Translations under genes and position numbers: made by a program
Notes under the pieces: model-generated
Database searches by the model: none
The model's input: only the letters and a program-made list of their open reading frames with translations
Told to the model about the DNA's origin: nothing
Shown: piece by piece, positions 107 to 11,065 of the stretch
Numbering within the stretch: position 1 is the first letter of the stretch
Layout of the letters: the number at the start of each line of letters is the position of its first letter
NCBI GenBank assembly: GCA_964549305.1
Contig: CAZJVM010000026.1
Location: forward strand, 23,322-34,386
From: an uncultured bacterium
GTDB taxonomy: Bacteria > Schekmanbacteria > GWA2-38-11 > J061
Reading direction: 5' to 3'
Length of the DNA: 11,065 nt

Positions 107-1639
107 ATGGATAAAAACGGGGATTTTACGCAAAGCGACAGTAAAGAGTTTATGGGCAAAAACGCCCGTTATACCGCCGCAGGCGTTTTGTTTTCATCAT
201 TCTTTGGCTTCCTCCTCTACTTTGCAATCGGCAGATTCTTCGGCGCGGGAAGCGTAAGCGACGCTTTTTTCGCCGCAAACATTATATGGATGATGTTTCT
301 AACATTTGCTTCCACATTCAGATACACGGTTTCTGTTATGCTTGCACCTCTTGAAAAAGCGGAAGAATTCAAAGCGCTTGAAGGAAAAGTGCTTACAACC
401 GTGATTTTCTTAATCATTCCCCTTTGTTTTATCATTTATATCTATTCTTACCAATTAACCGGACTTCTCGGCGCGGGATTTGACGCAAAGAGAATGGATA
501 TAGCGCGCAATCTCGTGAAGATAATGATACCGGGATTTTTCTTTGTCTGCGCGGGATTTGTTTTTTCGTCATCACTTGGCGCGCGGGGAATATTTTCCAT
601 ACCCGCGCTTGCCCTTGCATCATTGAATATGACCGCTTTCCTTATTTTTCTTTTGCTTAAAGATCCTTTGGGAATTTATGCCGTTGCAATCGGTCTTACT
701 GCCGGTTCGGTAATTTTTTTTCTTATTCTTCTTTCCGCTGTAACGGTTAAAGGGATTTTCCCCGGGTTAAAACTTGTTTCGCCGCGGATTTTCTTCAAAT
801 TTATGGCTGTTATTTTCGCCGGCGCGGGCGTTTATCTCTTCAATCAGCTCAACTATTGGGCTATTCAGAGTTTTTCATCTTTTTTTAGAGAAGGCATCCC
901 GAGTCTCTTTGCTTATTCAGCCACCGTTACGGCTTTCGTGATTTATATTATATCTTTTCCAATTTCGGTTGTTTCCGCGCCTTCCATGGCAAGACAGCGG
1001 GAAAACGTAGAGAAGTATTTTTTCGGCGCTCTTCGCCTCAATTCCATTTTCTCGATTCCTCTTGCCGTAATGGTATTTCTCTTTGCCGACAGTTGTGCGA
1101 AAATTTTGTTCGCGGGAAGTTTTTCGGATTTGCAGATTCAAATTCTCGCAGGGATGATCAAACTTTATATACCTGTCATAATTGCCGGTGGAGTGCTCCT
1201 TCAGTTTTTCTCACTCTTTTTCTCCATGGATATGAAAAGACATCTCTTTATATCCGGACTTTTGAGTATCCCTGTCAATCTGATTCTCTTGTATCTGCTT
1301 GAACCCTATACCGGGTATTATTCCCTTATGCTTTCACAACTCGGATTTACGCTTTTCATTCTTGCCTACCTCTTTACTTTTATGAAATCGCTTAAAATTA
1401 AAATCAAACCGCTGTGTATGGAAATTTTTCAACCCAATGTGGTCATTTGCGCCATTTTCGCTTCGGTACCCGTAAAGGTTATTATGTTTTTAATTGGCGA
1501 AAAAACTGATTTGCCTTTTTTGGGGGAATTCTTGCTAATATCAGGCGGAGTGCTAATATATCTTGTATCTTTCATTTTGCTTCTCAGGTTTTTGAGCAGG
1601 GCTAAATTCGAGGAAACGGCAGGGATGATTAAAAGATAG
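107..1639 (+). CDS. MurJ/MviN-like MOP-superfamily flippase (divergent; probably not the housekeeping lipid II flippase)
   Basis: 510 aa, hydrophobic throughout (about 12-14 TM segments). MurJ-like motifs include 'GRFFGAGSVSDAFFAA', 'GAGFD...RNLVKIMIPGFFF', 'LGIYAVAIGLTAG' and 'AYSA...PSMAR'. An alternative start is possible at M16 (nt 152). Confidence 0.8.
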   Translation: MDKNGDFTQSDSKEFMGKNARYTAAGVLFSSFFGFLLYFAIGRFFGAGSVSDAFFAANIIWMMFLTFASTFRYTVSVMLAPLEKAEEFKALEGKVLTTVIFLIIPLCFIIYIYSYQLTGLLGAGFDAKRMDIARNLVKIMIPGFFFVCAGFVFSSSLGARGIFSIPALALASLNMTAFLIFLLLKDPLGIYAVAIGLTAGSVIFFLILLSAVTVKGIFPGLKLVSPRIFFKFMAVIFAGAGVYLFNQLNYWAIQSFSSFFREGIPSLFAYSATVTAFVIYIISFPISVVSAPSMARQRENVEKYFFGALRLNSIFSIPLAVMVFLFADSCAKILFAGSFSDLQIQILAGMIKLYIPVIIAGGVLLQFFSLFFSMDMKRHLFISGLLSIPVNLILLYLLEPYTGYYSLMLSQLGFTLFILAYLFTFMKSLKIKIKPLCMEIFQPNVVICAIFASVPVKVIMFLIGEKTDLPFLGEFLLISGGVLIYLVSFILLLRFLSRAKFEETAGMIKR

Positions 1640-1645
1640 ATTGTA

Positions 1646-2374
1646 ATGCAGGAAAATAAAGAAAAGAATAGCGATAAACTTATAATCATAATACCCGCGT
1701 TCAACGAAGCGCAGGGCATTGCAAAAGTCATTGAAGACGTGCACGCCTCTTTTTCGCAGGCGGAGATTGTTGTTGTCGATGACGGTTCGAAAGACAATAC
1801 ATGGGAATCAGCAGGGAACTCAGGAGCTACCGTACTGCGGCTTTCTGCTAATATGGGATACGGCGCGGCACTTCAAACGGGGTTTCGCTATGCTGTTGAA
1901 AATCGCTATGAAAGGGCGGTTATTATGGACGGCGACGGACAGCACCTTGCGGGAGAGATAGAAAAAGTTTTGAATCCCCTCCTTGAAGAAGGATACGACC
2001 TTGTCATCGGGTCGAGATATTCGGGGGAGAAGAAATATGAAGGCTCTTTTTTTAGAAAACTCGGTTCCTACCTTTTTGCAAAGCTCGCTTCCCTTTCCCT
2101 TGGTTTTACCGTTACCGACCCTACATCGGGGTTTCAGGCATTGAGCGGAAGAATACTCAGGTTTTTCACCACTCCTGTTTATCCCTCAGACTACCCCGAT
2201 GCTGATATTTTAATTGCATCAAAGAGAAACGGTTTCAGGATTAAAGAAGTCTCCGTTGCAATGAAGGCAAACCCTTCCGGAAAATCGATGCATTCCGGAT
2301 TAAAGCCGCTTTATTATATATTCAAAATGTTCTTTTCCGTATTTCTCACTTTTTTGAGAAAAAAGGACTTTTAA
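1646..2374 (+). CDS. GT2 glycosyltransferase, DPM1/GacI/PpgS-like polyprenyl-phosphate sugar synthase
   Basis: 242 aa with IIIPAFNE, VVVDDGSKDNT, NMGYGAALQTGF, MDGDGQH (DxD), DLVIGSRY and TDPTSGFQA motifs typical of DPM1-like GT2. It lies directly upstream of a DUF2304 gene. Confidence 0.88.
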   Translation: MQENKEKNSDKLIIIIPAFNEAQGIAKVIEDVHASFSQAEIVVVDDGSKDNTWESAGNSGATVLRLSANMGYGAALQTGFRYAVENRYERAVIMDGDGQHLAGEIEKVLNPLLEEGYDLVIGSRYSGEKKYEGSFFRKLGSYLFAKLASLSLGFTVTDPTSGFQALSGRILRFFTTPVYPSDYPDADILIASKRNGFRIKEVSVAMKANPSGKSMHSGLKPLYYIFKMFFSVFLTFLRKKDF

Positions 2375-2379
2375 TTAAT

Positions 2380-2384
2380 GGAGG
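2380..2384 (+). promoter_or_regulatory. Shine-Dalgarno GGAGG for the DUF2304 gene
   Basis: GGAGG 6 nt upstream of ATG 2391. Confidence 0.75.
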
Positions 2385-2390
2385 AATGAA

Positions 2391-2735
2391 ATGCCGTTAA
2401 TTCAAAAAATATTTGCTCTATCCGTAAGCATAATTATTCTGGTGATTATTATCGAGCTTGTCAGGAGAAGGAAACTGCGTGAAGAATATTCCCTGTTATG
2501 GATTATCACCGGGATATCGATTATTGTTCTTTCAAGCTGGTACAAGCTTCTTCTCTTTATTACAAAGATGATTGGGGCGGTGCTTCCCACTTCAACGCTT
2601 TTCCTATTCAGTGTTCTCTTTCTCATTCTCATTAGTCTGCATTTTTCCGTTAAAATATCCATGCTTACCGATAAGCTGAAGGATGTCACTCAGGATGTAG
2701 CCCTTCTGCGGGCTAAAGTGGAAAAAGGAGAGTAG
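2391..2735 (+). CDS. DUF2304 family small membrane protein (GacJ/Rv3632-like partner of GT2)
   Basis: 114 aa, three TM helices, 'ELVRRRKLREEYSLLW' motif and C-terminal amphipathic 'SVKISMLTDKLKDVTQDVALL', characteristic of DUF2304. It sits in its usual position after a GT2 gene. Confidence 0.85.
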   Translation: MPLIQKIFALSVSIIILVIIIELVRRRKLREEYSLLWIITGISIIVLSSWYKLLLFITKMIGAVLPTSTLFLFSVLFLILISLHFSVKISMLTDKLKDVTQDVALLRAKVEKGE

Positions 2736-2747
2736 GAATTTCCGAAT

Positions 2748-4754
2748 ATGGGCATTAAAAAAAAAGCAGAAGAAAATATTAAGTCAGGGACAGCCGCCGG
2801 TATTCTCTTTGTTCTCCTTCTCGCTATATATGGGTTTTCCCTTGCATATCCTTTTCATTACGACGACTGGAAGGTAATAGTAAATAACGAGAGCATCAGG
2901 TATGCCGGTACGATGAAAAACGTACTTCTTTCCGAGGCGTCGCGCCCTTTAACGATTTTAACATTTGCCCTCAATTACGCCTTTTCGGGGACAAATCCCG
3001 CCTGTTACAGAGTAGTGAATATTCTGCTTCACTTTTTCAACTCCCTTTTTCTCTATTTCATCTTAACCTTTTTCACCGATAGCTATAAAAAAAAAATATC
3101 ACCCTATGCCGCTGTAATCTCCGCGGGAGTCTTTCTGGCCCATCCGGTTCAGATTGAGGCAGTTACCTATATATCAAGCCGCTCGGAACTTCTTTTCTGT
3201 TTTTTCTCCTTTGCGTCGTTTCTCATTTTCTTGAAAGCAGCAAACCGTGAAAGATTTCGCCTGTTGACGGCGTTGTCAGTTGTTATTTTTATCTTTGCCC
3301 TTGTTTCCAAGGAAAGGGCGGTGATGTATCCTTTTGTGGCGGGGATTTTCTTTGCCCTTTTTCCCCGTAATTTCAAAAAAAATATGGGCAGGATATATGC
3401 TTACCTGTCACTTTGCCTGATTGCTGATCTACTTTATGTTCTTTACAGATTTACCTTTGCGGCGAGTTTCGAGGTGCGTACCGCGGCACGCACCTACATA
3501 GAGCAGGCAAAGGGCGCTGTTGCAGTTCTTTTAATCTACGTGAGAATGCTTTTTCTTCCCTTTAACCAGAATATAGATCATACAGTTAATGTTCCTTCGG
3601 GGACTGCCCTGGTCAAAGACCTGTTTATGATATTTGTTCTGATTTTTTTAACGGCTTTAATTTTCCGGAAAAGGGATAAGTATTTTTTTCTTTTTCCGGG
3701 TATAATCATTTTTATTCTTCCCCTCATTCCCAATCTTCTCATTCCCATTGAAGACCTTATGACTGAGCGATGGATGTATATGTCTGTTGCGGGACTTTCT
3801 TTCGTAATACTTCAGGCGTTTGTATCAATCGGCGAAATTAAAAGAATCGGCGAAAAAATATTATTTGGTATTCTAATATTTTTTATCATTCTTTCCTGCG
3901 GAAGAAATGCTGTCTGGTCCGATGAAGTGAGCCTGTGGAACGATGCGGCAAAGAAATCGCCTCAAAAGGCGCGACCACTGAACAATATGGCTTATGTGCA
4001 TATTCAAAGAGGCGAATATGAGAAGGCGCGCGATGAGCTCGCAGAGGCAATCAGGCGTGAGCCTGGCTTTGCACAGGCATACTTTAACTTCGGCACACTC
4101 TTTTCAAAAACCGGAAACGGCCCAAAAGCGGTTGAGTTTTATAAAAAATCCTTTGAACTTGATAAGGGTTTTAAGGGAGCGCCCGTGAATATCGGAGTGA
4201 TTGTTGCCCGCGAAACGAAGGACTATGCTTCAGCGGAAAGATGGTTTAAGTATGCATTAAGCTTTGATGAGGATTTCATTCCCGCCCTTGAAAACCTTGC
4301 GGAACTCTATTATGCGACAAAGAGATTTTCAGAGGCGGGAGCGTACTTTGCGAAATTGAAAAAGATTGGCGTTAAAAACAGGGAATTTGAAATCAAAGCG
4401 GCTAATTCCTGCAGAAGGGCGGGGAATTTGAATGAGGCGATGAAACTTTATAGAGAATACATTAAGAAATATGGTGAAAGTGTTGAAGCTCTTTCGGGAA
4501 TGGCTAAAATCAGTTTTTCCCGCGGAGAAAACGAAAAGGCATATGCCCTTTTTAAAAGGGTAACGGAGATAAATCCGAAAACCCCCGAGGCATACGGCAA
4601 CATTGCCCTTATTCTTTTAAAGAATGGAAAAAAAGAGGAAGCTATTGAAAACCTCGAGAAAGTTATCCTCCTCAATCCGTCGGATTCAAGGGCGCGAAAT
4701 TTGAAAGATACCATCCTTTCCGAAATGAGAGAGGAACAAAGTAAAAAGGAATAA
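2748..4754 (+). CDS. TMTC-like GT-C glycosyltransferase with C-terminal TPR repeats (paralog 1)
   Basis: 668 aa. N-terminal TM followed by PFHYDD (DD at 2862-2867), YRVVNILLH, HPVQIEAVTYISSRSELL, LVSKE, ERWMY, RNAVWSDEVSLW, then roughly 7-8 TPR-like repeats (e.g. AYFNFG...KAVEFYKKSFELD, AYGNIA...EAIENLEKVILLNP). Confidence 0.85.
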   Translation: MGIKKKAEENIKSGTAAGILFVLLLAIYGFSLAYPFHYDDWKVIVNNESIRYAGTMKNVLLSEASRPLTILTFALNYAFSGTNPACYRVVNILLHFFNSLFLYFILTFFTDSYKKKISPYAAVISAGVFLAHPVQIEAVTYISSRSELLFCFFSFASFLIFLKAANRERFRLLTALSVVIFIFALVSKERAVMYPFVAGIFFALFPRNFKKNMGRIYAYLSLCLIADLLYVLYRFTFAASFEVRTAARTYIEQAKGAVAVLLIYVRMLFLPFNQNIDHTVNVPSGTALVKDLFMIFVLIFLTALIFRKRDKYFFLFPGIIIFILPLIPNLLIPIEDLMTERWMYMSVAGLSFVILQAFVSIGEIKRIGEKILFGILIFFIILSCGRNAVWSDEVSLWNDAAKKSPQKARPLNNMAYVHIQRGEYEKARDELAEAIRREPGFAQAYFNFGTLFSKTGNGPKAVEFYKKSFELDKGFKGAPVNIGVIVARETKDYASAERWFKYALSFDEDFIPALENLAELYYATKRFSEAGAYFAKLKKIGVKNREFEIKAANSCRRAGNLNEAMKLYREYIKKYGESVEALSGMAKISFSRGENEKAYALFKRVTEINPKTPEAYGNIALILLKNGKKEEAIENLEKVILLNPSDSRARNLKDTILSEMREEQSKKE

Positions 4755-6389
4755 ATGGAAAACATAAAGAATAGAAATGTCATTATAGCAGTATTCCTGA
4801 TGTTAATCATTCTTCTCATATATCTTCCGGCAGTGGATTTTCCATTTCAATACGATGATGTGAAGGTTATCGTGATGCCTGATGTAATCAAGACTTTGAG
4901 CATAGATAAAATTTTCGAAGACAATCCCTTTCGCTTCCTTCTTACGTTTTCTTTTGCCGTTAATTATTTTTTTTCCGGACTTTCGCCGTCAGGTTACAGG
5001 ACGGTTAATATTCTTCTTCACATTGAGAATACCCTTCTCTTTTATCTGATTTTCAGCCGTATCGAGGAATTAATTATTACCAAAAAAAAAGACGGGGAAA
5101 AGCTTTTTTTCACTCCTTCATCTGTTTCAGCTTTTTTCTTTGCCGTAAGCCCTCTTATGATTGAATCGGTGACTTATGTTTCCGGAAGGTCGGAGCTTTT
5201 ATGCGGTTTCTTTTTTTTACTCTCTATCTATTTTTTCCTTTCATTCATCGGGCAGGGAAAGGGATATTACCTCATTCCTTCTCTTTTAGCGGGAAGCGCG
5301 TCTGTGCTTTCAAAGGAGAGAGGGGGAATGCTCGTTTTTGTCATTTTCCTTATAATAGCCTTCGTGCCGGCAAAATTCAGGAAAAAAAAGGTCTATTATG
5401 CTCTCATTCCCTACTTTCTTTTGTTCATTTTTTATATTGTCTTCAGACAGCAGTTTCTCGGAGATACTTTCGAGTCGGGATTTCAAAGAGATTTTATGAG
5501 ACAGATTTTTTATCAGGGAGAAGCGCAAGTGCTGAATTTAAAACTCCTTTCTTTCCCGGTTAATCTCTGTATTATGTATCCCCATTATCTTTCGTCATCT
5601 TCTCCTCTTCTAAGATTTGCCGCCATTGTCCTGATTGTCATTTTTTTCATTGCCCTTACAATCAGAATTTCCTCATCGACAAAGGCGGGACTCTTCTGCT
5701 GGGCGTGGTTTTATATTATTATTGCGCCCAATATTATCGTACCCCTTCAGGATATTGCCGCGGACAGATGGCTTTACCTTCCCTCTGCGGGAATATTCTT
5801 TTTGGCGGGAATGATACTTTGCGGGAATGTTAAAAAGCCCGCCTTTGCGTCGCTTCGCTCTGCCTTGATTATTTCAGTTATCCTCTGCTTTACTCTTTTA
5901 TCAATTGACAGAAATATGGTGTGGCGAACGGAAATATCCCTTTGGCAGGATGCAGTGGCGAAGGCGTCTTCTTCGGCGCGTCCCTACAATAACTTCGGTG
6001 TTGCACTGGGAAAAAGCAACAGACTATCAGAAGCGAAAGATAATTTTCTAAAGTCTCTTTCAATCGATGAATATTATTCGCCGGCGTGGTCAAACTTCGG
6101 ATTTGCCTGCAGGAAAAGCGGGGACGAAATGGGCGTGCTGAAATCTGCCGCTCAGCTTTTACGGTGCGGAGAGCATTTCGCGCGCAGGGGGCAGATAAAG
6201 GAGGCGATAACTTCCTACAGGTCAATTCTTACCCTTGTGCCCGATTCCATTGCCGCGATGGGAAATCTTGCCTCCATCTATATAATGACGGGAAATTACG
6301 AGGTCGCGCGATTATATCTCAGAGACCTTTTAGAGATATCGCCATCAAACAGAATGGCAAGAGAAATGCTTTCAAAAATCGGAGAATAG
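4755..6389 (+). CDS. TMTC-like GT-C glycosyltransferase with short TPR region (paralog 2)
   Basis: 544 aa. PFQYDD (DD at 4854-4859), YRTVNILLH, SPLMIESVTYVSGRSELL, LSKE, ADRWLYLPS, RNMVWRTEISLW, then about 4 TPR-like repeats. The start directly abuts the upstream stop (TAAATG). Confidence 0.85.
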   Translation: MENIKNRNVIIAVFLMLIILLIYLPAVDFPFQYDDVKVIVMPDVIKTLSIDKIFEDNPFRFLLTFSFAVNYFFSGLSPSGYRTVNILLHIENTLLFYLIFSRIEELIITKKKDGEKLFFTPSSVSAFFFAVSPLMIESVTYVSGRSELLCGFFFLLSIYFFLSFIGQGKGYYLIPSLLAGSASVLSKERGGMLVFVIFLIIAFVPAKFRKKKVYYALIPYFLLFIFYIVFRQQFLGDTFESGFQRDFMRQIFYQGEAQVLNLKLLSFPVNLCIMYPHYLSSSSPLLRFAAIVLIVIFFIALTIRISSSTKAGLFCWAWFYIIIAPNIIVPLQDIAADRWLYLPSAGIFFLAGMILCGNVKKPAFASLRSALIISVILCFTLLSIDRNMVWRTEISLWQDAVAKASSSARPYNNFGVALGKSNRLSEAKDNFLKSLSIDEYYSPAWSNFGFACRKSGDEMGVLKSAAQLLRCGEHFARRGQIKEAITSYRSILTLVPDSIAAMGNLASIYIMTGNYEVARLYLRDLLEISPSNRMAREMLSKIGE

Positions 6390-6393
6390 TTAT

Positions 6394-8505
6394 TTGCGCT
6401 TCAAATATTTTTTTATTTTCATCGTTCTTGCGGCAGTATTGATTTATGTTTATGCCGATTCCTTCAATTCACCCTTTCAGTATGATGATGTCCGCACTAT
6501 CGCGTTGAATCAAAAAATAACGGATTTCAATCCGCTGAAGATTTTTCTGGATTATCCTTCGCGGGCATTTACGCAAATGACTTTTTCCCTTAATCTTGCC
6601 GTTGGGGGAATCGACACCTTTGGATTTCATCTTGTTAATTTCATTATCCATCTGCTGAACGGAATTTTGTTTTTTCTTCTGCTCAAATGTATGAGCGGGG
6701 GTGATGTGAAACTGTCACTTTTTGCCTCGGCGCTTTTTCTTCTCTATCCGGTCAATGTGGAAGCGGTAACATATATTTCGGCAAGGTCGGGACTTCTATC
6801 TTCCTTTTTTTTGCTTGCCGGAATGCTCTCATTTATCAATTCTCAAACTTCAAAGAGGATGGTTTCCAAGTGGTCCCTTTTATCCCTTTTCCTTTTCTTT
6901 TTCGCCTCTGTGAGCAAGGAGTCGGGTTTTGTCTTCCTTTTCTTTCTTGTGCTTTATTTCCTGTCATTTGAAAGGGGAAACACTGAAGGATTGAAGAAGT
7001 ATCTGCCTTTTACATTCCTGTGGGTTGTTCTGGTCATATCCTATTTTATATATAATTCCGGTACAGTGCCCGGCAAAAGAAGCCATTCACTTGTTACCCA
7101 TTTAATAACTCACGTCGATGCGTCTGAAAAATATCTGCGTTTATTTCTTTTTCCCGTTAATCTGAACATTGACCATTATTTTCCCTTAAGGCCATATCCC
7201 GGCATTAAAACATTATGTTTTTTACTTCTCATAATTGCCGCGATATATTTCCTCTTTTGGAAGGGAAAGTCGCCTGCAGGAAAATTTTTTGCGGGATTCT
7301 ATTTTGTTTCTTTTTTGCCTGTTGCTCTTGTGCCTCTTAATGACATTGTTTCGGAGAGATGGATGTATCTTGCTTCACTATCCCTATCATTCTTTGTCGC
7401 TAAGTGTTTTCTGGTTTCTGAAAAATATGCCAAAGGAGACGGCATAAGATTGTTCATTGCTAAAGCACTTCCTTTAATTTTAATTGTCTTGTTCGCCCTG
7501 AATACGCAAAATCGCAATGCCCTCTGGATTGACGATGTCGCTCTCTGGCAGGACGCGGCAAAAAAGTCGCCTGAAAAAGCGAGACCCTATCTCAATCTCG
7601 GTTCAGCGCTTCTTTCAAAGTCAGCTTTTTCAAAAGCGGAGTCAGCTTTAAAAACCGCTGTGCTCATCGATAATGAATCTGCCGAACCTTATCTAAATCT
7701 CGGACTTTTAAAAGTTATGGAGGGTAATATGGGCGAGGCATTCAATTTTTTCAGGAAAGCTGAAAGCATTAATCGTGAATCTCCCTATGTGCGAAACAAT
7801 TTCGGCAACTTTTTCAGGGATACGGGAAACTTAGAAAGGGCGGAAAATGAATACAGAAAAGTTATTTCCCTTATGCCGGCATTTGCCGAAGCGCACGGAA
7901 ACCTCGGAATTGTTTTAAAGAGGATGGGAAGATACAAAGAGGCGGAAGATGAAATAAGAAACGCGTCCCATATGGATAAATTCAGATATAAATGGAGAAA
8001 CGAGCTTGCTATTTTGTACCTTGAAAGAGGGATAATGGAAAAAGCGGGGGAAATCATAGAAAATCTGATTTCTGATTTTCCGAATGTTGCAAGTGTAAGA
8101 AACACAAAGGGGATTTTTCTTGCTAAAAGCGGAAAAATCGCGGAGTCCGAAAAAGAATTTTCGAGAGCATTCACGCTTTCCCCCTCCAATATTAATTACC
8201 TTACTAACAAAGCGCTTGCTCTAAAAAAAGCAGGGCGCTTAGATGACGCGTTGACCTGCTTTGACATTGCCGAAAGGCATTATCCCAAAGCATATGATAT
8301 ACTCTTTAACAAGGGCGTAATTCTCTTTATGAAAAAAAAATATGATAACTCCGAAAAATATTTTAAAAAAGCACTGATGCTGAATCCGTCATTTGCCCTT
8401 TCGTGGAAATATCTCGGCGATATTGAATTTGCGCGGGGAAACAGGGTTCAAGGGTTAAAATTTTATTCATCTTATCTTAAATACGGGCAAAAAAATATTA
8501 ATTGA
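6394..8505 (+). CDS. TMTC-like GT-C glycosyltransferase with long TPR array (paralog 3), TTG start
   Basis: 703 aa. PFQYDD (DD at 6484-6489), FHLVNFIIH, YPVNVEAVTYISARSGLL, VSKE, SERWMY, RNALWIDDVALW, then about 9 TPR-like repeats. The TTG start is supported by GGAG at 6381-6384 and by the need for the N-terminal TM helix before YDD. Confidence 0.83.
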   Translation: MRFKYFFIFIVLAAVLIYVYADSFNSPFQYDDVRTIALNQKITDFNPLKIFLDYPSRAFTQMTFSLNLAVGGIDTFGFHLVNFIIHLLNGILFFLLLKCMSGGDVKLSLFASALFLLYPVNVEAVTYISARSGLLSSFFLLAGMLSFINSQTSKRMVSKWSLLSLFLFFFASVSKESGFVFLFFLVLYFLSFERGNTEGLKKYLPFTFLWVVLVISYFIYNSGTVPGKRSHSLVTHLITHVDASEKYLRLFLFPVNLNIDHYFPLRPYPGIKTLCFLLLIIAAIYFLFWKGKSPAGKFFAGFYFVSFLPVALVPLNDIVSERWMYLASLSLSFFVAKCFLVSEKYAKGDGIRLFIAKALPLILIVLFALNTQNRNALWIDDVALWQDAAKKSPEKARPYLNLGSALLSKSAFSKAESALKTAVLIDNESAEPYLNLGLLKVMEGNMGEAFNFFRKAESINRESPYVRNNFGNFFRDTGNLERAENEYRKVISLMPAFAEAHGNLGIVLKRMGRYKEAEDEIRNASHMDKFRYKWRNELAILYLERGIMEKAGEIIENLISDFPNVASVRNTKGIFLAKSGKIAESEKEFSRAFTLSPSNINYLTNKALALKKAGRLDDALTCFDIAERHYPKAYDILFNKGVILFMKKKYDNSEKYFKKALMLNPSFALSWKYLGDIEFARGNRVQGLKFYSSYLKYGQKNIN

Positions 8506-8525
8506 AAAAGGAAAATCGGGAATAG

Positions 8526-10559
8526 ATGGGAGATTACCTTTCACCTCGTCAACAAAAGCAGGGGAAAATTCTTTTCATAATCTGCGCCCTGCTTTTTATT
8601 CTTTCCTTTGCCTTATATTTTCAAAGCATATTTCACGGTTTTACGAATTACGATGACGACTGGCTGATTCTCGATAACTTTAAAATTCGCACACTGGAAA
8701 ACACTTTCAGGTTTTTTACGGAATCTACGGAAACCGACTATCTCCCTCTGAAAGAACTTTCATATGCCGTTAATTACTATTTTAACGGGACTGACCCCCT
8801 GGGATATCATCTTACCGATGTAGTTCTTTACGCGCTAACGGTTGTTTTTGTTTTTCTCTTTTTAATGACATTGTCCGACTCCTGTCTTCTGCCTGTAACG
8901 GCAACCTTGATTTTTCTCTGTCACCCCATTCACGCCGAAGTTGTCAACTGGGCATCTGCTAGAAAAGATACTCTGTCGGGACTTTTCTTTTTCGCGTCCC
9001 TTTATTTATTTGCAAGATATTTAAAAGGAGGAAAGGTAAAAAAAACTTCGCTCTATCTTCTTTCGCTTTTTCTTTTTCTATTATCTCTCTTTTCAAAGCC
9101 TTCAGTGATTATCCTGCCTCTGCTTCTTTTTGTGACCGAAATCTCATTCTTCAATGACGGTGATGACTGCAGGAAACTTTTTCCCGAAGGAATAATAAAA
9201 AGGATAATGCCTTTTGCGGCAGTCTCGGTTGTCTTTGCTATTCTTACATTTGTTACCGCCTATGAAAAAGAGGTAGTGAAAGAGTATTGGGAAGGCAGTC
9301 CCTATGTGACGTTTCTGTCAATGATAACCGTTATAGGCGATTACATTCGTCTTGTATTTTTTCCCTTCAACCTTTCTGTGAGATATGAGATAGATTTTCA
9401 GAGAAGTTTTTTCAGCATGCCGGTTATCCTCAATCTCATCTTTATAGCGATTATCCTTTTTGCCGCTTTAAAATGGAAAGAAAATAAGTGGTATCGCTTC
9501 GGAATTCTTTGGTTTTTCGCATCTCTTCTTCCCGTGTCGAATATAATACCCATAGCGATTTTAAAAGCCGACAGATATATCTACATTCCCTCTCTGGGCA
9601 TCATTGTCATCTTTGCGTTCTTCATTACCCGTCTTTTCGAAAAAGAGAGGGGCGAAACTTCCCTGCTCCCCATAAAATCCCTTGCTTATCTTTTCTCTTT
9701 GCTCGTATTCATTCTGTTTTCGCTTCTCACAGTTGACAGAAGCAATGTATGGAAGGACGGAATGACTCTTTGGCAGGATACGATAAAAAAATCGCCCGGT
9801 GATTATCTCGTATTGAACAATATGGGCACTACGTACAAAGATATGAAAAAATATGAGAAAGCGGAAAGTTTGTTTCGCCGGGCAATAAGGGCAAAGCCCG
9901 ATTATTATGCCCCCTATTTCAACCTTTCCACGCTATACGGTATTTACGGTGAAAGGGAAGAAGCGCTTTCATATATAGAAAAAGCTTTTGAACTCAACCC
10001 GGGAGATTTTAAGACAAATGTGAATCTCGGGAACATCTACAGGAGAGAAGGAAGACTGACCGATGCTGAATCGGCATACAGGCGCGCCATATCGATTAAA
10101 CCCGACGCGCCCGAAGGGTATTACAATCTCGCTATTTTCTATGAAAAGGAAATGGGTGACTTAAATGAAGCGCTGAAACTTTATGAGATGTCAATCACCA
10201 GGGATAAAACATTCGTGCGTGCCTTTAACAACATAGGAAACCTGTATTTCAGAAACGGAAAACCCGATGATGCCCTTTTCTACTATGAAAAGGCGCTTGA
10301 AATAAAACCGGGACACCTTCAATCCCTTAACAACATTGCCACGATTTACCTTCAGAAGGGAAAGTGCGAAAAGGCGATTTCATACTTGAAAAAAGCTGTT
10401 CAAAAAAGTAGTGATTTAAGACATATATTCTATTTCAACCTTTACAAGGCATATCAATGCTCGGGAAACGATAAGGAATCCGTGAAATATCTGAAACTTT
10501 CTCTTGAAATAAAGCCGGATTTTGCGCCCGCGCTTGAAGCACTGGACGTAAAAAAATGA
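8526..10559 (+). CDS. TMTC-like GT-C glycosyltransferase with TPR array (paralog 4, distinct subclade)
   Basis: 677 aa. FTNYDDD (DDD at 8652-8660), YHLTDVVLY, HPIHAEVVNWASARKDTL, FSKP, ADRYIYIPS, RSNVWKDGMTLW, then about 7 very regular TPRs (NNMG...AESLFRRAIRAKP, NLGNIY...AESAYRRAISIKP, NNIGNLY...ALFYYEKALEIKP). Confidence 0.85.
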   Translation: MGDYLSPRQQKQGKILFIICALLFILSFALYFQSIFHGFTNYDDDWLILDNFKIRTLENTFRFFTESTETDYLPLKELSYAVNYYFNGTDPLGYHLTDVVLYALTVVFVFLFLMTLSDSCLLPVTATLIFLCHPIHAEVVNWASARKDTLSGLFFFASLYLFARYLKGGKVKKTSLYLLSLFLFLLSLFSKPSVIILPLLLFVTEISFFNDGDDCRKLFPEGIIKRIMPFAAVSVVFAILTFVTAYEKEVVKEYWEGSPYVTFLSMITVIGDYIRLVFFPFNLSVRYEIDFQRSFFSMPVILNLIFIAIILFAALKWKENKWYRFGILWFFASLLPVSNIIPIAILKADRYIYIPSLGIIVIFAFFITRLFEKERGETSLLPIKSLAYLFSLLVFILFSLLTVDRSNVWKDGMTLWQDTIKKSPGDYLVLNNMGTTYKDMKKYEKAESLFRRAIRAKPDYYAPYFNLSTLYGIYGEREEALSYIEKAFELNPGDFKTNVNLGNIYRREGRLTDAESAYRRAISIKPDAPEGYYNLAIFYEKEMGDLNEALKLYEMSITRDKTFVRAFNNIGNLYFRNGKPDDALFYYEKALEIKPGHLQSLNNIATIYLQKGKCEKAISYLKKAVQKSSDLRHIFYFNLYKAYQCSGNDKESVKYLKLSLEIKPDFAPALEALDVKK

Positions 10560-10625
10560 TTTATTATTTTTGTTAGTTTTAGATTTGTTTATAAATAATT
10601 ATCATAATATGTAGCTGTTTTAGAA

Positions 10626-10642
10626 TGTCGGTTTTTTGAACA
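10626..10642 (+). promoter_or_regulatory. Putative enhancer (UAS) site 1 for a sigma54 activator, TGT-N11-ACA
   Basis: TGTCGGTTTTTTGAACA, an imperfect palindrome repeated at 10689-10705. It lies about 205 bp upstream of the predicted sigma54 start. Confidence 0.6.
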
Positions 10643-10688
10643 TTTTTTTCCCATAAAAAACAGCAACTTAACAAAAGAGCAAAAAAAG

Positions 10689-10705
10689 CGTCGGAAAATT
10701 GAACA
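10689..10705 (+). promoter_or_regulatory. Putative enhancer (UAS) site 2 for a sigma54 activator
   Basis: CGTCGGAAAATTGAACA shares GTCGG-N4-TTGAACA with site 1 and is offset by 63 bp (6 helical turns). Confidence 0.6.
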
Positions 10706-10772
10706 AAAATTGATAATTAAAGTTCTTTGTTTTAAAAAAAAAAAGAGAGGGGAAAATAAAATATCTCTATTT

Positions 10773-10785
10773 TATCAATGTTTTA
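10773..10785 (+). promoter_or_regulatory. Putative IHF binding site
   Basis: TATCAATGTTTTA matches WATCAA-N4-TTR exactly and has AT-rich sequence upstream. It lies between the UAS repeats and the -24/-12 element. Confidence 0.55.
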
Positions 10786-10814
10786 CTGTTAAAAATAGAT
10801 TTTTTTTCTAAAAA

Positions 10815-10830
10815 CGGCATAATTTTTGCT
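10815..10830 (+). promoter_or_regulatory. sigma54 (RpoN) -24/-12 promoter
   Basis: CGGCATAATTTTTGCT: GG (10816-17), N10, GC (10828-29), matching YGGCAY-N5-TTGCW. Predicted +1 is near 10841, about 50 nt before the small ORF. Confidence 0.75.
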
Positions 10831-10881
10831 TGTTTGAACTGATAAAAGATTTTGTTCATAAAAAAAACTCAATAAAACTAT

Positions 10882-10888
10882 GGAGGTT
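10882..10888 (+). promoter_or_regulatory. Strong Shine-Dalgarno for the small peptide ORF
   Basis: GGAGGT begins at 10882 and ends 6 nt before ATG 10894. Confidence 0.8.
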
Positions 10889-10893
10889 ATTCA

Positions 10894-11055
10894 ATGAGTC
10901 AGACCCGTAAAAAGACAGCAGTAAAGGAAGAAAGGCTTTCGGAATCAGGCGGCAAAAAACCTTTCGAAGAGCCGAAAATCAAGGTTTACAAGAAGCTTGA
11001 AGACATCACCCTTTTTACATCGACACAGAATGTTTCGGGCGGAACATTTTTCTAA
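10894..11055 (+). CDS. 53-aa putative RiPP precursor peptide with lasso-type/RRE-binding leader
   Basis: MSQTRKKTAVKEERLSESGGKKPFEEPKIKVYKKLEDITLFTSTQNVSGGTFF* (TAA 11053-11055). It has a strong RBS, its own sigma54 promoter, and the leader motif KKP-F-x-x-P-x-I...L-x-x-I-T. It is below the length cut-off of the ORF track. Confidence 0.75.
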   Translation: MSQTRKKTAVKEERLSESGGKKPFEEPKIKVYKKLEDITLFTSTQNVSGGTFF

Positions 11056-11065
11056 AGGAACGGAA

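Follow-up and report, generated by a model that had tools for sequence, protein, structure and literature searches.

A conserved 53-residue peptide that joins a lasso-type leader to a non-lasso core, encoded next to a predicted beta-propeller lipoprotein in Schekmanbacteria

Results

Gene order at the end of the contig

The window, by which we mean the whole stretch of 11,065 nucleotides under analysis, covers G000:C26:23322-34386 on the plus strand, and its last base (11065) is also the last base of contig C26. Here and below, G000 is the window's own genome, C-numbers denote contigs, L-numbers extracted loci and P-numbers database proteins. Most of the window is occupied by genes for a MurJ-family flippase, a family-2 glycosyltransferase (GT2), a DUF2304 protein and four membrane proteins with C-terminal tetratricopeptide (TPR) repeats, all on the plus strand and followed by an intergenic region and a short open reading frame (Table 1). 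The second TPR gene has a weak match to PMT_2 (GT-C) of 24.8 bits, below the cut-off of 26.1. The MurJ, GT2 and DUF2304 genes precede the short reading frame in the same order in G003:C37, and the locus at 107-10559 recurs upstream of it in both G003:C37 and G002:C12. Judged by its gene families, this locus resembles an envelope protein- or glycan-glycosylation system.

Table 1. Features of the window and positions of a sister peptide family elsewhere in the genomes.
Feature	Position	Strand	Evidence or remark
MurJ-family flippase	107-1639	+	
Family-2 glycosyltransferase	1646-2374	+	
DUF2304 protein	2391-2735	+	
Four TPR membrane-protein genes	2748-4754, 4755-6389, 6394-8505, 8526-10559	+	
677-aa membrane protein with C-terminal TPR repeats	8526..10559	+	Last of the four TPR genes
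A+T-rich intergenic region	10560..10893	+	Three sigma-70-like consensus matches on the plus strand at 10570-10626; no terminator-like site
Shine-Dalgarno-like GGAGGT	10882..10887	+	6-7 nt 5' of the ATG; read directly from the sequence
Peptide gene including stop	10894..11055	+	ATG start, 53 aa, TAA at 11053-11055; window member of the 51-56-aa family
Residues 1-20, variable, Lys/Glu-rich N-terminal part	10894..10953	+	Unconserved in family alignments
Residues 21-40, conserved leader-type segment KK-x-F/Y-x-x-P-x-I/L/V ... I-T-L	10954..11013	+	Alignments, docking model
Residues 21-40, predicted RRE docking site; predicted B2 cleavage site after Leu40	10954..11013	+	Alignments, model, spacing rule of PMC10368454
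Residues 41-53, predicted 13-residue core, Ser/Thr-rich with a Phe-Phe end; no Asp, Glu or Cys	11014..11052	+	Alignment
AAGGA overlapping the stop codon	11055..11059	+	Putative next ribosome-binding site of the first-pass annotation; six bases remain before the contig end at 11065
Sister (C27-type) peptide family	G000:C27:180-344 (L025); G002:C11 (L067 4736-4912); G003:C11 (L064 4362-4589)		

The intergenic region contains five sigma-70-like sites on the two strands together where 1.8 would be expected, all of them consensus matches only. For the reading frame at its end we obtained the same coordinates and the same translation as the first-pass annotation of this DNA, and the GGAGGT ribosome-binding site named there is present. 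The encoded peptide has neither a signal peptide nor a hydrophobic segment, and it matched none of the families in Pfam and none in NCBIfam at E up to 1. Short, low-depth unitigs from the sequencing runs left positions 10898-11001 of the reading frame without coverage, and one 136-base piece extended past the end of the window.

A conserved family of short peptides

The window's genome encodes a paralog of the peptide on a second contig, C43 (tblastn E 9e-10). Four further copies are present in G002, a genome in 20 contigs from the same family as G000, and one in G003, which belongs to a sister family. In a collection of 5.8 billion proteins we found 26 proteins of 51-56 residues, the two from the window's genome included; one of these relatives is named Candidatus Schekmanbacteria by its source. 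Eight further, more distant relatives (P0039-P0041, P0044-P0046, P0049 and P0050) were added when 1.84 billion representatives were searched exhaustively with a profile; two of the eight (P0040 and P0041) are encoded on contigs of about 45 kb. The relatives of the family that carry a name are thus from Candidatus Schekmanbacteria, with a few distant ones from elsewhere. A match in an Acholeplasmataceae metagenome-assembled genome, obtained with a narrower alignment in a profile search of genome contigs (67% identity over 18 residues, E 2e-4), was taken as spurious.

The 26 database proteins and three translated loci were combined into an alignment of 29 rows, some of which are identical. Seven residues (P27, I38, T39, N46, G49, F52 and F53) are invariant in this alignment and S43, at core position 3, is nearly so; the pattern FxxP...IT with a terminal Phe pair, for which the first-pass annotation had proposed to search homologs, is thus conserved at P27, I38, T39, F52 and F53. 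With distant lineages added (16 sequences), P27, T39 and G49 were still invariant. Conservation is confined to residues 21-53 and reaches the C-terminus, residues 1-20 varying freely, and the distant relatives carry 1-29 extra residues beyond the Phe pair. A "GG" split that had been placed after residue 20 of the window peptide is unconserved across the family.

Sequence divergence was examined in 12 DNA copies of the gene, across their final 33 codons. Synonymous differences (pS) ranged from 0.14 to 1.1 and were at least 0.6 in all except six pairs, as compared to non-synonymous differences (pN) of 0.00-0.39, and the two closest pairs differed by 6 and 3 synonymous changes with no non-synonymous change. 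The 53-aa reading frame is a real gene whose protein sequence is strongly constrained.

A lasso-type leader and a core without a macrolactam acceptor

Every one of the 29 rows fits the pattern [FYW]xxPx[ILVM] followed by nine residues, Thr, any residue and a tail of 13-14 residues. Counted from the predicted cleavage site, all rows have an aromatic residue at -17, Pro at -14, Ile, Leu or Val at -12 (the pattern also allows Met) and Thr at -2, and in the window peptide these positions are F24-x-x-P27-x-I29 ... T39-L40, spaced as previously described. Gly is usual at -8 of lasso leaders; at this position the peptide family has Lys, Ser, Asp, Glu or Pro. In lasso leaders, YxxPxL is described as occupying -17 to -12 and position -2 as usually Thr, rarely Ile or Val (PMC10368454), so that the spacing would be an exact match if cleavage falls after Leu40. 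The peptide family has an N-terminal leader recognition sequence of the W/Y/L-xx-P type, which is a criterion for an RRE-dependent precursor. As a caution, this motif is reported as common to the RREs of several RiPP classes, among them the lasso, PQQ and sactipeptide pathways (PMC12710340).

The 13-14-residue tail contains no Asp, Glu or Cys in any of the 29 rows. In a lasso macrolactam, the N-terminal amine is joined to an Asp or Glu around positions 7-9 of the core. Since none of the 29 cores provides such an acceptor, the peptide is not a lasso peptide, in line with the claim of the first-pass annotation that this core cannot form a lasso macrolactam.

Scoring against lasso-leader models gave a divided result: the window peptide on its own hit no family and the C43 paralog matched lasso_cyano weakly (13.8 bits against a cut-off of 33, E 0.042), whereas the leader half of the family profile retrieved proteins that pass curated models. 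These were P0042, P0043 and P0052, matched with E-values of 3e-6 to 8e-4 among 1.84 billion proteins, which score 37.6-54.9 bits with the NCBIfam model lasso_cyano (cut-off 33) and 20.6-25 bits with lasso_leader_L3 (cut-off 19). Two leader-type modules follow each other in a single chain in P0042 and P0043, and all three proteins may, as far as their sequences indicate, be multi-leader or repeat precursors. Genome-wide, there were 57 loose matches to the leader motif, of which by eye only three were hydrophilic and Lys-rich, namely the window peptide, the C43 paralog and a peptide on contig C27 that adjoins an RRE-fused radical SAM/SPASM enzyme.

Lipoprotein genes downstream of the peptide

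The next gene is visible at seven loci (G000:C43, the second copy in G002:C8, G002:C12, G002:C6, G003:C37, L053 and L055), and at all seven it encodes a lipoprotein and starts about 50-75 nt downstream. Six of these genes belong to one family of lipoproteins of about 1050 residues; the seventh, on G000:C43, encodes an FG-GAP lipoprotein that shares its N-terminal ~190 residues with that family. In G002:C8 there are two tandem copies of the peptide gene, the first followed by the second and then by a single lipoprotein gene. The gene order in G003:C37 is MurJ, GT2, DUF2304, three TPR membrane proteins, peptide and a 1042-aa lipoprotein, and that in G002:C12 is TPR proteins, peptide, a 1062-aa lipoprotein, an FG-GAP/TIG protein, a second lipoprotein and a TPR protein. 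Masked bases, seen as X in the translation, occur inside the lipoprotein gene of G003:C37.

Four loci, the window included, are cut just after the peptide gene: the contigs of L051, L052 and L054 (three of the five metagenome contigs) and the window's own contig break within about 10-80 bases of it. G000 contained no more of the lipoprotein family than a 164-aa end fragment, compared to five full copies in G002, and from their sequences the lipoprotein genes look like a multi-copy repeat family that breaks assemblies. The fragment, the C-terminal 164 aa of such a lipoprotein, opens contig C35 at positions 1-492 and is followed by a matching TPR gene. No other contig end in G000 shares at least 8 bases with the end of C26, and the putative joining of C26 to C35 is based on gene order only.

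A maturase gene had been expected just beyond the window edge; the gene order conserved in G003:C37, G002:C12 and the metagenome loci instead puts a lipoprotein of about 1050 residues there. Likewise, the AAGGA at the end of the window is unlikely to be the next ribosome-binding site, since the next start codon in the relatives lies about 50-75 nt after the stop.

The lipoprotein matched no Pfam and no NCBIfam family, its profile gave no sequence match to solved structures at E up to 1, an ESM Atlas query with a natural paralog returned nothing usable, and only 12 relatives were found. The structural model is weak (mean pLDDT 48.5, with residues from about 760 to 1062 unmodelled) and predicts a beta-sandwich and, after it, a beta-propeller of seven blades that spans roughly residues 195-762. 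Alignment of the model with VIA-align gave Z-scores of 18-21.6 with many unrelated seven-bladed propellers tied, and Foldseek returned Kelch-propeller matches with low TM-scores; we therefore limit the fold claim to "beta-propeller". No cofactor motifs were identified in this predicted propeller.

The peptide and the full-type lipoprotein are both present in G000, G002 and G003, and neither was found in G001 or G004. The five genomes are mutually related and two are poorly assembled, G001 being 97% complete in 370 contigs and G004 70% complete. In G001 there was no DNA match to window positions 8526-11065 and no match to the peptide at E up to 10, a result that is uninformative given the 370 contigs. 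Because the peptide co-occurs with the lipoprotein, and the B2 cluster described below is present in all five genomes, the peptide is tied more tightly to the lipoprotein than to that cluster.

RRE-associated enzymes elsewhere in the genomes

Neither an RRE nor a maturase gene was found near the peptide at its seven genome copies or the five metagenome loci, and in G002, where the two occur on one contig, about 216 kb separate the peptide from the closest RRE gene. Exactly one lasso-type B2 protein (NF033537) above the NCBI cut-off is encoded in every one of the five analysed genomes of the phylum, and its gene always comes after genes for PqqD (94-101 aa), an HprK-like protein of ~330 aa and a ~340-aa radical SAM enzyme. 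Of the kinds of maturase named in the first-pass annotation, radical SAM, HPr-kinase-like and B2 peptidase are accordingly encoded in the genome, elsewhere than beside the peptide. Cys75, His109 and Asp127 of B2 are invariant in three aligned orthologs. In none of the five genomes did we find a precursor-like reading frame of at least 18 aa around the B2 cluster, or an Asn-synthase-like cyclase (PF00733) beside either the peptide or the cluster; the PF00733 matches in these genomes were genes of AsnB size that lie on different contigs or at a large distance.

The cluster is complete in G002:C9 and G003:C1; in G000 it is interrupted by a contig break and lies partly on C86 and partly on C3. The two halves of the single B2 gene, G000:C86:1-327 (-) and G000:C3:2-268 (+), both lie at contig starts, and the two contigs are therefore genomic neighbours. 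Next on contig C3 are a 211-aa gene and a 274-aa reading frame, much as genes of 215 and 780 aa come after B2 in G003:C1. The gene divergent from the B2 cluster, at G000:C86:2663-3931 (L021), contains masked bases that appear as X in the translation.

There are five PqqD matches above the cut-off in G000 and at least four RRE systems besides the B2 cluster, and in the lineage most RRE systems apart from the B2 cluster come with a peptide of their own. The assignment of the peptide to the B2 cluster is based on Thr at -2 and on elimination. One of the other systems contains a sister peptide family of 54-75 aa (C27-type; Table 1), with the leader K-P-x-Y-x-x-P-E-I/V-I-T-Y and Cys-containing tails. 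These peptides adjoin a radical SAM/SPASM enzyme, to which the PqqD match is N-terminal in G000 and G003 and encoded by a separate gene in G002, and an HprK-like protein is also present at the locus in G000 and G003. The G000 locus then continues with a PorU-like protein of 1079 aa, an S26-type peptidase and a VanZ-like protein, while in G003 the peptide comes after a TPR gene. In G002:C11, a 573-aa secreted protein of no known family lies between peptide and enzyme; considered as a relative of the lipoprotein, it showed no detectable relation (hhalign probability 1%).

Two further cluster types were seen. In the C10-type (G000:C10, L023 4525-7005; G002:C12, L066 3614-6212), an HprK-like protein, PqqD and a radical SAM/SPASM enzyme are followed by a peptide of 67-72 aa whose N-terminus is twin-arginine-like (RRxFL) and which contains the motif W-x-S-P-x-h-I-S-L, likely a further type of precursor to judge by these motifs. 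The C28-type (G000:C28, L022 1930-5952; G002:C11, L065 256-6127) consists of a radical SAM/SPASM enzyme, PqqD, an HprK-like protein and an S26-type signal-peptidase-like protein, preceded in G002 by a 1009-aa S8 subtilase with CARDB domains, and there was no precursor among the listed reading frames of G000:C28 and G002:C11.

Docking of the peptide to the RRE of the B2 cluster

The first-pass annotation had proposed modelling the peptide with any neighbouring RRE. We docked one RRE, that of the B2 cluster (alignment of 5 rows), with residues 18-53 of the peptide (27 distinct rows). The complex model scored 0.80, as compared to 0.01 for the best of three controls. Among solved complexes 116 of 157 attained the pass mark, as did 2 of 215 mismatched pairs, figures that serve as a rough guide only, our own alignments having been used here. 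The runs agreed in at least 86% of contacts, and the partner pLDDT was at least 60. In the model, peptide residues 21-35, 37-38 and 40-43 are in contact with the RRE, and the tightest contacts are predicted between residues 24-32 and RRE residues 34-40, 64 and 74-82.

The model supports binding of the peptide leader by an RRE. RRE-leader complexes of lasso systems have already been solved, so the high score may reflect likeness to these; furthermore, docking of this kind does not separate paralogous RREs, and close cousins of the true partner also pass. Together with the spacing found in all 29 rows and the curated leaders retrieved by the profile, the predicted docking of residues 21-35 agrees with the earlier description of the leader as RRE- or lasso-like.

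Discussion

A proposed precursor matured in trans

The peptide gene is coding and conserved, its leader has the motif and the spacing of lasso leaders, its pairing with a lipoprotein gene is invariable at the loci where the next gene is visible, and the lineage's only lasso-B2 cluster is without a precursor. The explanation that we prefer, at a probability of roughly one half, is that the peptide is an RRE-recognised precursor whose leader, but not its core, is of the lasso type, and that it is matured in trans and is functionally or genetically coupled to the adjacent lipoprotein with its predicted beta-propeller. Residues 21-40 would then be the leader for a PqqD-type RRE, and the modifying enzymes would act from a locus apart from the peptide gene. 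The likeliest machinery is the B2 cluster, with its PqqD/RRE, HPr-kinase-like protein, radical SAM enzyme and B2 peptidase with a putative Cys-His-Asp triad. Under this scheme, the RRE would bind F24-x-x-P27-x-I29, the kinase and/or the radical SAM enzyme would modify the Ser/Thr- and Phe-rich tail, and B2 would cleave after Thr39-Leu40 to release a 13-residue non-lasso product, presumably exported, that may work with, or on, the neighbouring lipoprotein. HPr-kinase homologues are described as phosphorylating lasso precursors with the help of B1, either at Ser3 of the core (PMC10368454) or at the C-terminal Ser (PMC8498205).

A more specific form of this proposal seems rather doubtful to us. 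It would have a RiPP-like product made one-for-one with the lipoprotein, by RRE-guided modification, leader removal by B2 and export, and then serving as a dedicated ligand, small subunit or prosthetic group. Equally doubtful is its corollary, that a lasso leader-processing module has been re-used without the cyclase, its precursor genes being scattered beside the client proteins.

Alternative explanations

The peptide could instead be an unmodified small protein, or an upstream peptide acting in cis on the expression or handling of the lipoprotein, such as a translational leader or arrest peptide, with the resemblance to lasso leaders being coincidental. We regard this as unlikely on balance, even with the lipoprotein gene so close downstream at every visible locus and the presence or absence of the two genes matching in all five genomes. 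The pattern of conservation would also suit a cis-acting peptide, in that the last ~33 residues up to the stop are conserved and the N-terminus is free to vary; the ribosomal exit tunnel holds roughly 33 residues. Between the stop codon and the lipoprotein start, 0 consensus RNA pairs were predicted at six loci, whose brief A+T-rich spacers are difficult to align. Several observations speak against a cis-acting peptide. Tandem copies before one lipoprotein gene, as in G002:C8, are common for RiPP precursors. Arrest at the stop codon fits poorly with the additional residues after the Phe pair in distant relatives, and a secretion-sensing function with the lack of a signal peptide or hydrophobic segment. 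A coincidental motif is hard to reconcile with a leader match that is specific and reproduced on curated lasso leaders, or with a predicted docking score that is high relative to the controls.

Maturation of an RRE-dependent precursor by one of the other RRE systems, either the C28-type cluster (radical SAM/SPASM, PqqD, HprK-like, S26-type protein and S8 subtilase) or the C27-type RRE-fused radical SAM/SPASM enzyme, appears distinctly improbable. The multiplicity of PqqD matches in G000 leaves room for such a partner, the C28-type cluster is likewise without a visible precursor, the leader of the C27-type peptide is nearly identical in form, and paralogous RREs are not separated by docking. 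It is only the B2 cluster, however, that has a lasso-type peptidase fitting the invariant Thr at -2 and the exact -17/-14/-12 spacing, and the C27-type and C10-type clusters already have adjacent peptides of their own.

That the gene encodes a genuine lasso precursor is very unlikely. The leader spacing and Thr at -2 fit and a B1/B2-type pair is present in the genome, but the acceptor residue is lacking in all 29 cores, no cyclase gene adjoins the peptide or the B2 cluster, and the peptide family does not pass the curated lasso precursor models. A chance reading frame in an A+T-rich spacer, as its short length, intergenic setting and lack of family-model matches might suggest, can practically be dismissed in view of the purifying selection, the strong ribosome-binding site and the dozens of equally long homologs in different lineages.

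Comparison with known systems

The preferred explanation of a precursor matured in trans has its closest parallel in phosphorylated lasso systems with split B1 and B2 and an HPr-kinase homologue (paeninodin; BsfA of Bradymonas), whose leaders have the same residues at -17, -14, -12 and -2 as the peptide family and which, like the B2 cluster, contain a discrete PqqD-type B1, a B2 peptidase of the Cys-His-Asp type and an HprK-like kinase (PMC10368454, PMC8498205). BsfK is described as phosphorylating Ser at core position 3 (PMC10368454), the position also taken by Ser43 in the peptide family. In contrast to these systems, the core of the peptide lacks Asp and Glu, the place of the cyclase is taken by a radical SAM enzyme, and the precursor lies outside the cluster, paired with a lipoprotein gene. 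The RRE of the B2 cluster also scores only 50.4 bits with the NCBI lasso PqqD model, below its cut-off of 80, and the peptide family fails the lasso precursor models.

The combination of HprK-like protein, PqqD and radical SAM enzyme is shared with SynChlorMet (ScmC HprK-like, ScmD PqqD, ScmE/F radical SAM) and the HPr-rel-A system, cassettes that are defined in NCBIfam and uncharacterised. The cluster's matches to ScmD, ScmF, HprK_rel_A and HprK_rel_B are weak and far below the cut-offs (ScmF 84 bits against 400, HprK_rel_A 43 against 200), and PqqD_rel_X is passed by just a single separate PqqD of G000, located on C87 (40.4 against 35). Neither the peptide family nor the cluster is described in the papers listed by literature searches on Schekmanbacteria and RiPPs and on SynChlorMet and HprK-related systems.

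Peptide-derived partners of periplasmic beta-propeller proteins are known from PqqA and PQQ with the quinoprotein dehydrogenases and from QhpC, the small subunit of quinohemoprotein amine dehydrogenase. By analogy only, these resemble the arrangement proposed here, in that a small leader peptide is processed by PqqD/RRE, radical SAM enzyme and protease and the product joins an extracytoplasmic beta-propeller. No sequence similarity of the peptide family to PqqA or QhpC was obtained in any search, and unlike in those systems the predicted propeller is here part of a lipoprotein in which no cofactor motifs were identified.

Implications

If the preferred explanation is true, the lasso module for leader recognition and cleavage (B1 and B2) would work without a cyclase, having been co-opted, along with a kinase and a radical SAM enzyme, for a non-lasso product. 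A precursor that is encoded far from its enzymes and paired with a client gene would be missed by cluster-based genome mining, and no curated model detects the peptide family. It would also provide a first functional handle on the large lipoproteins with predicted beta-propellers in this barely studied candidate phylum.
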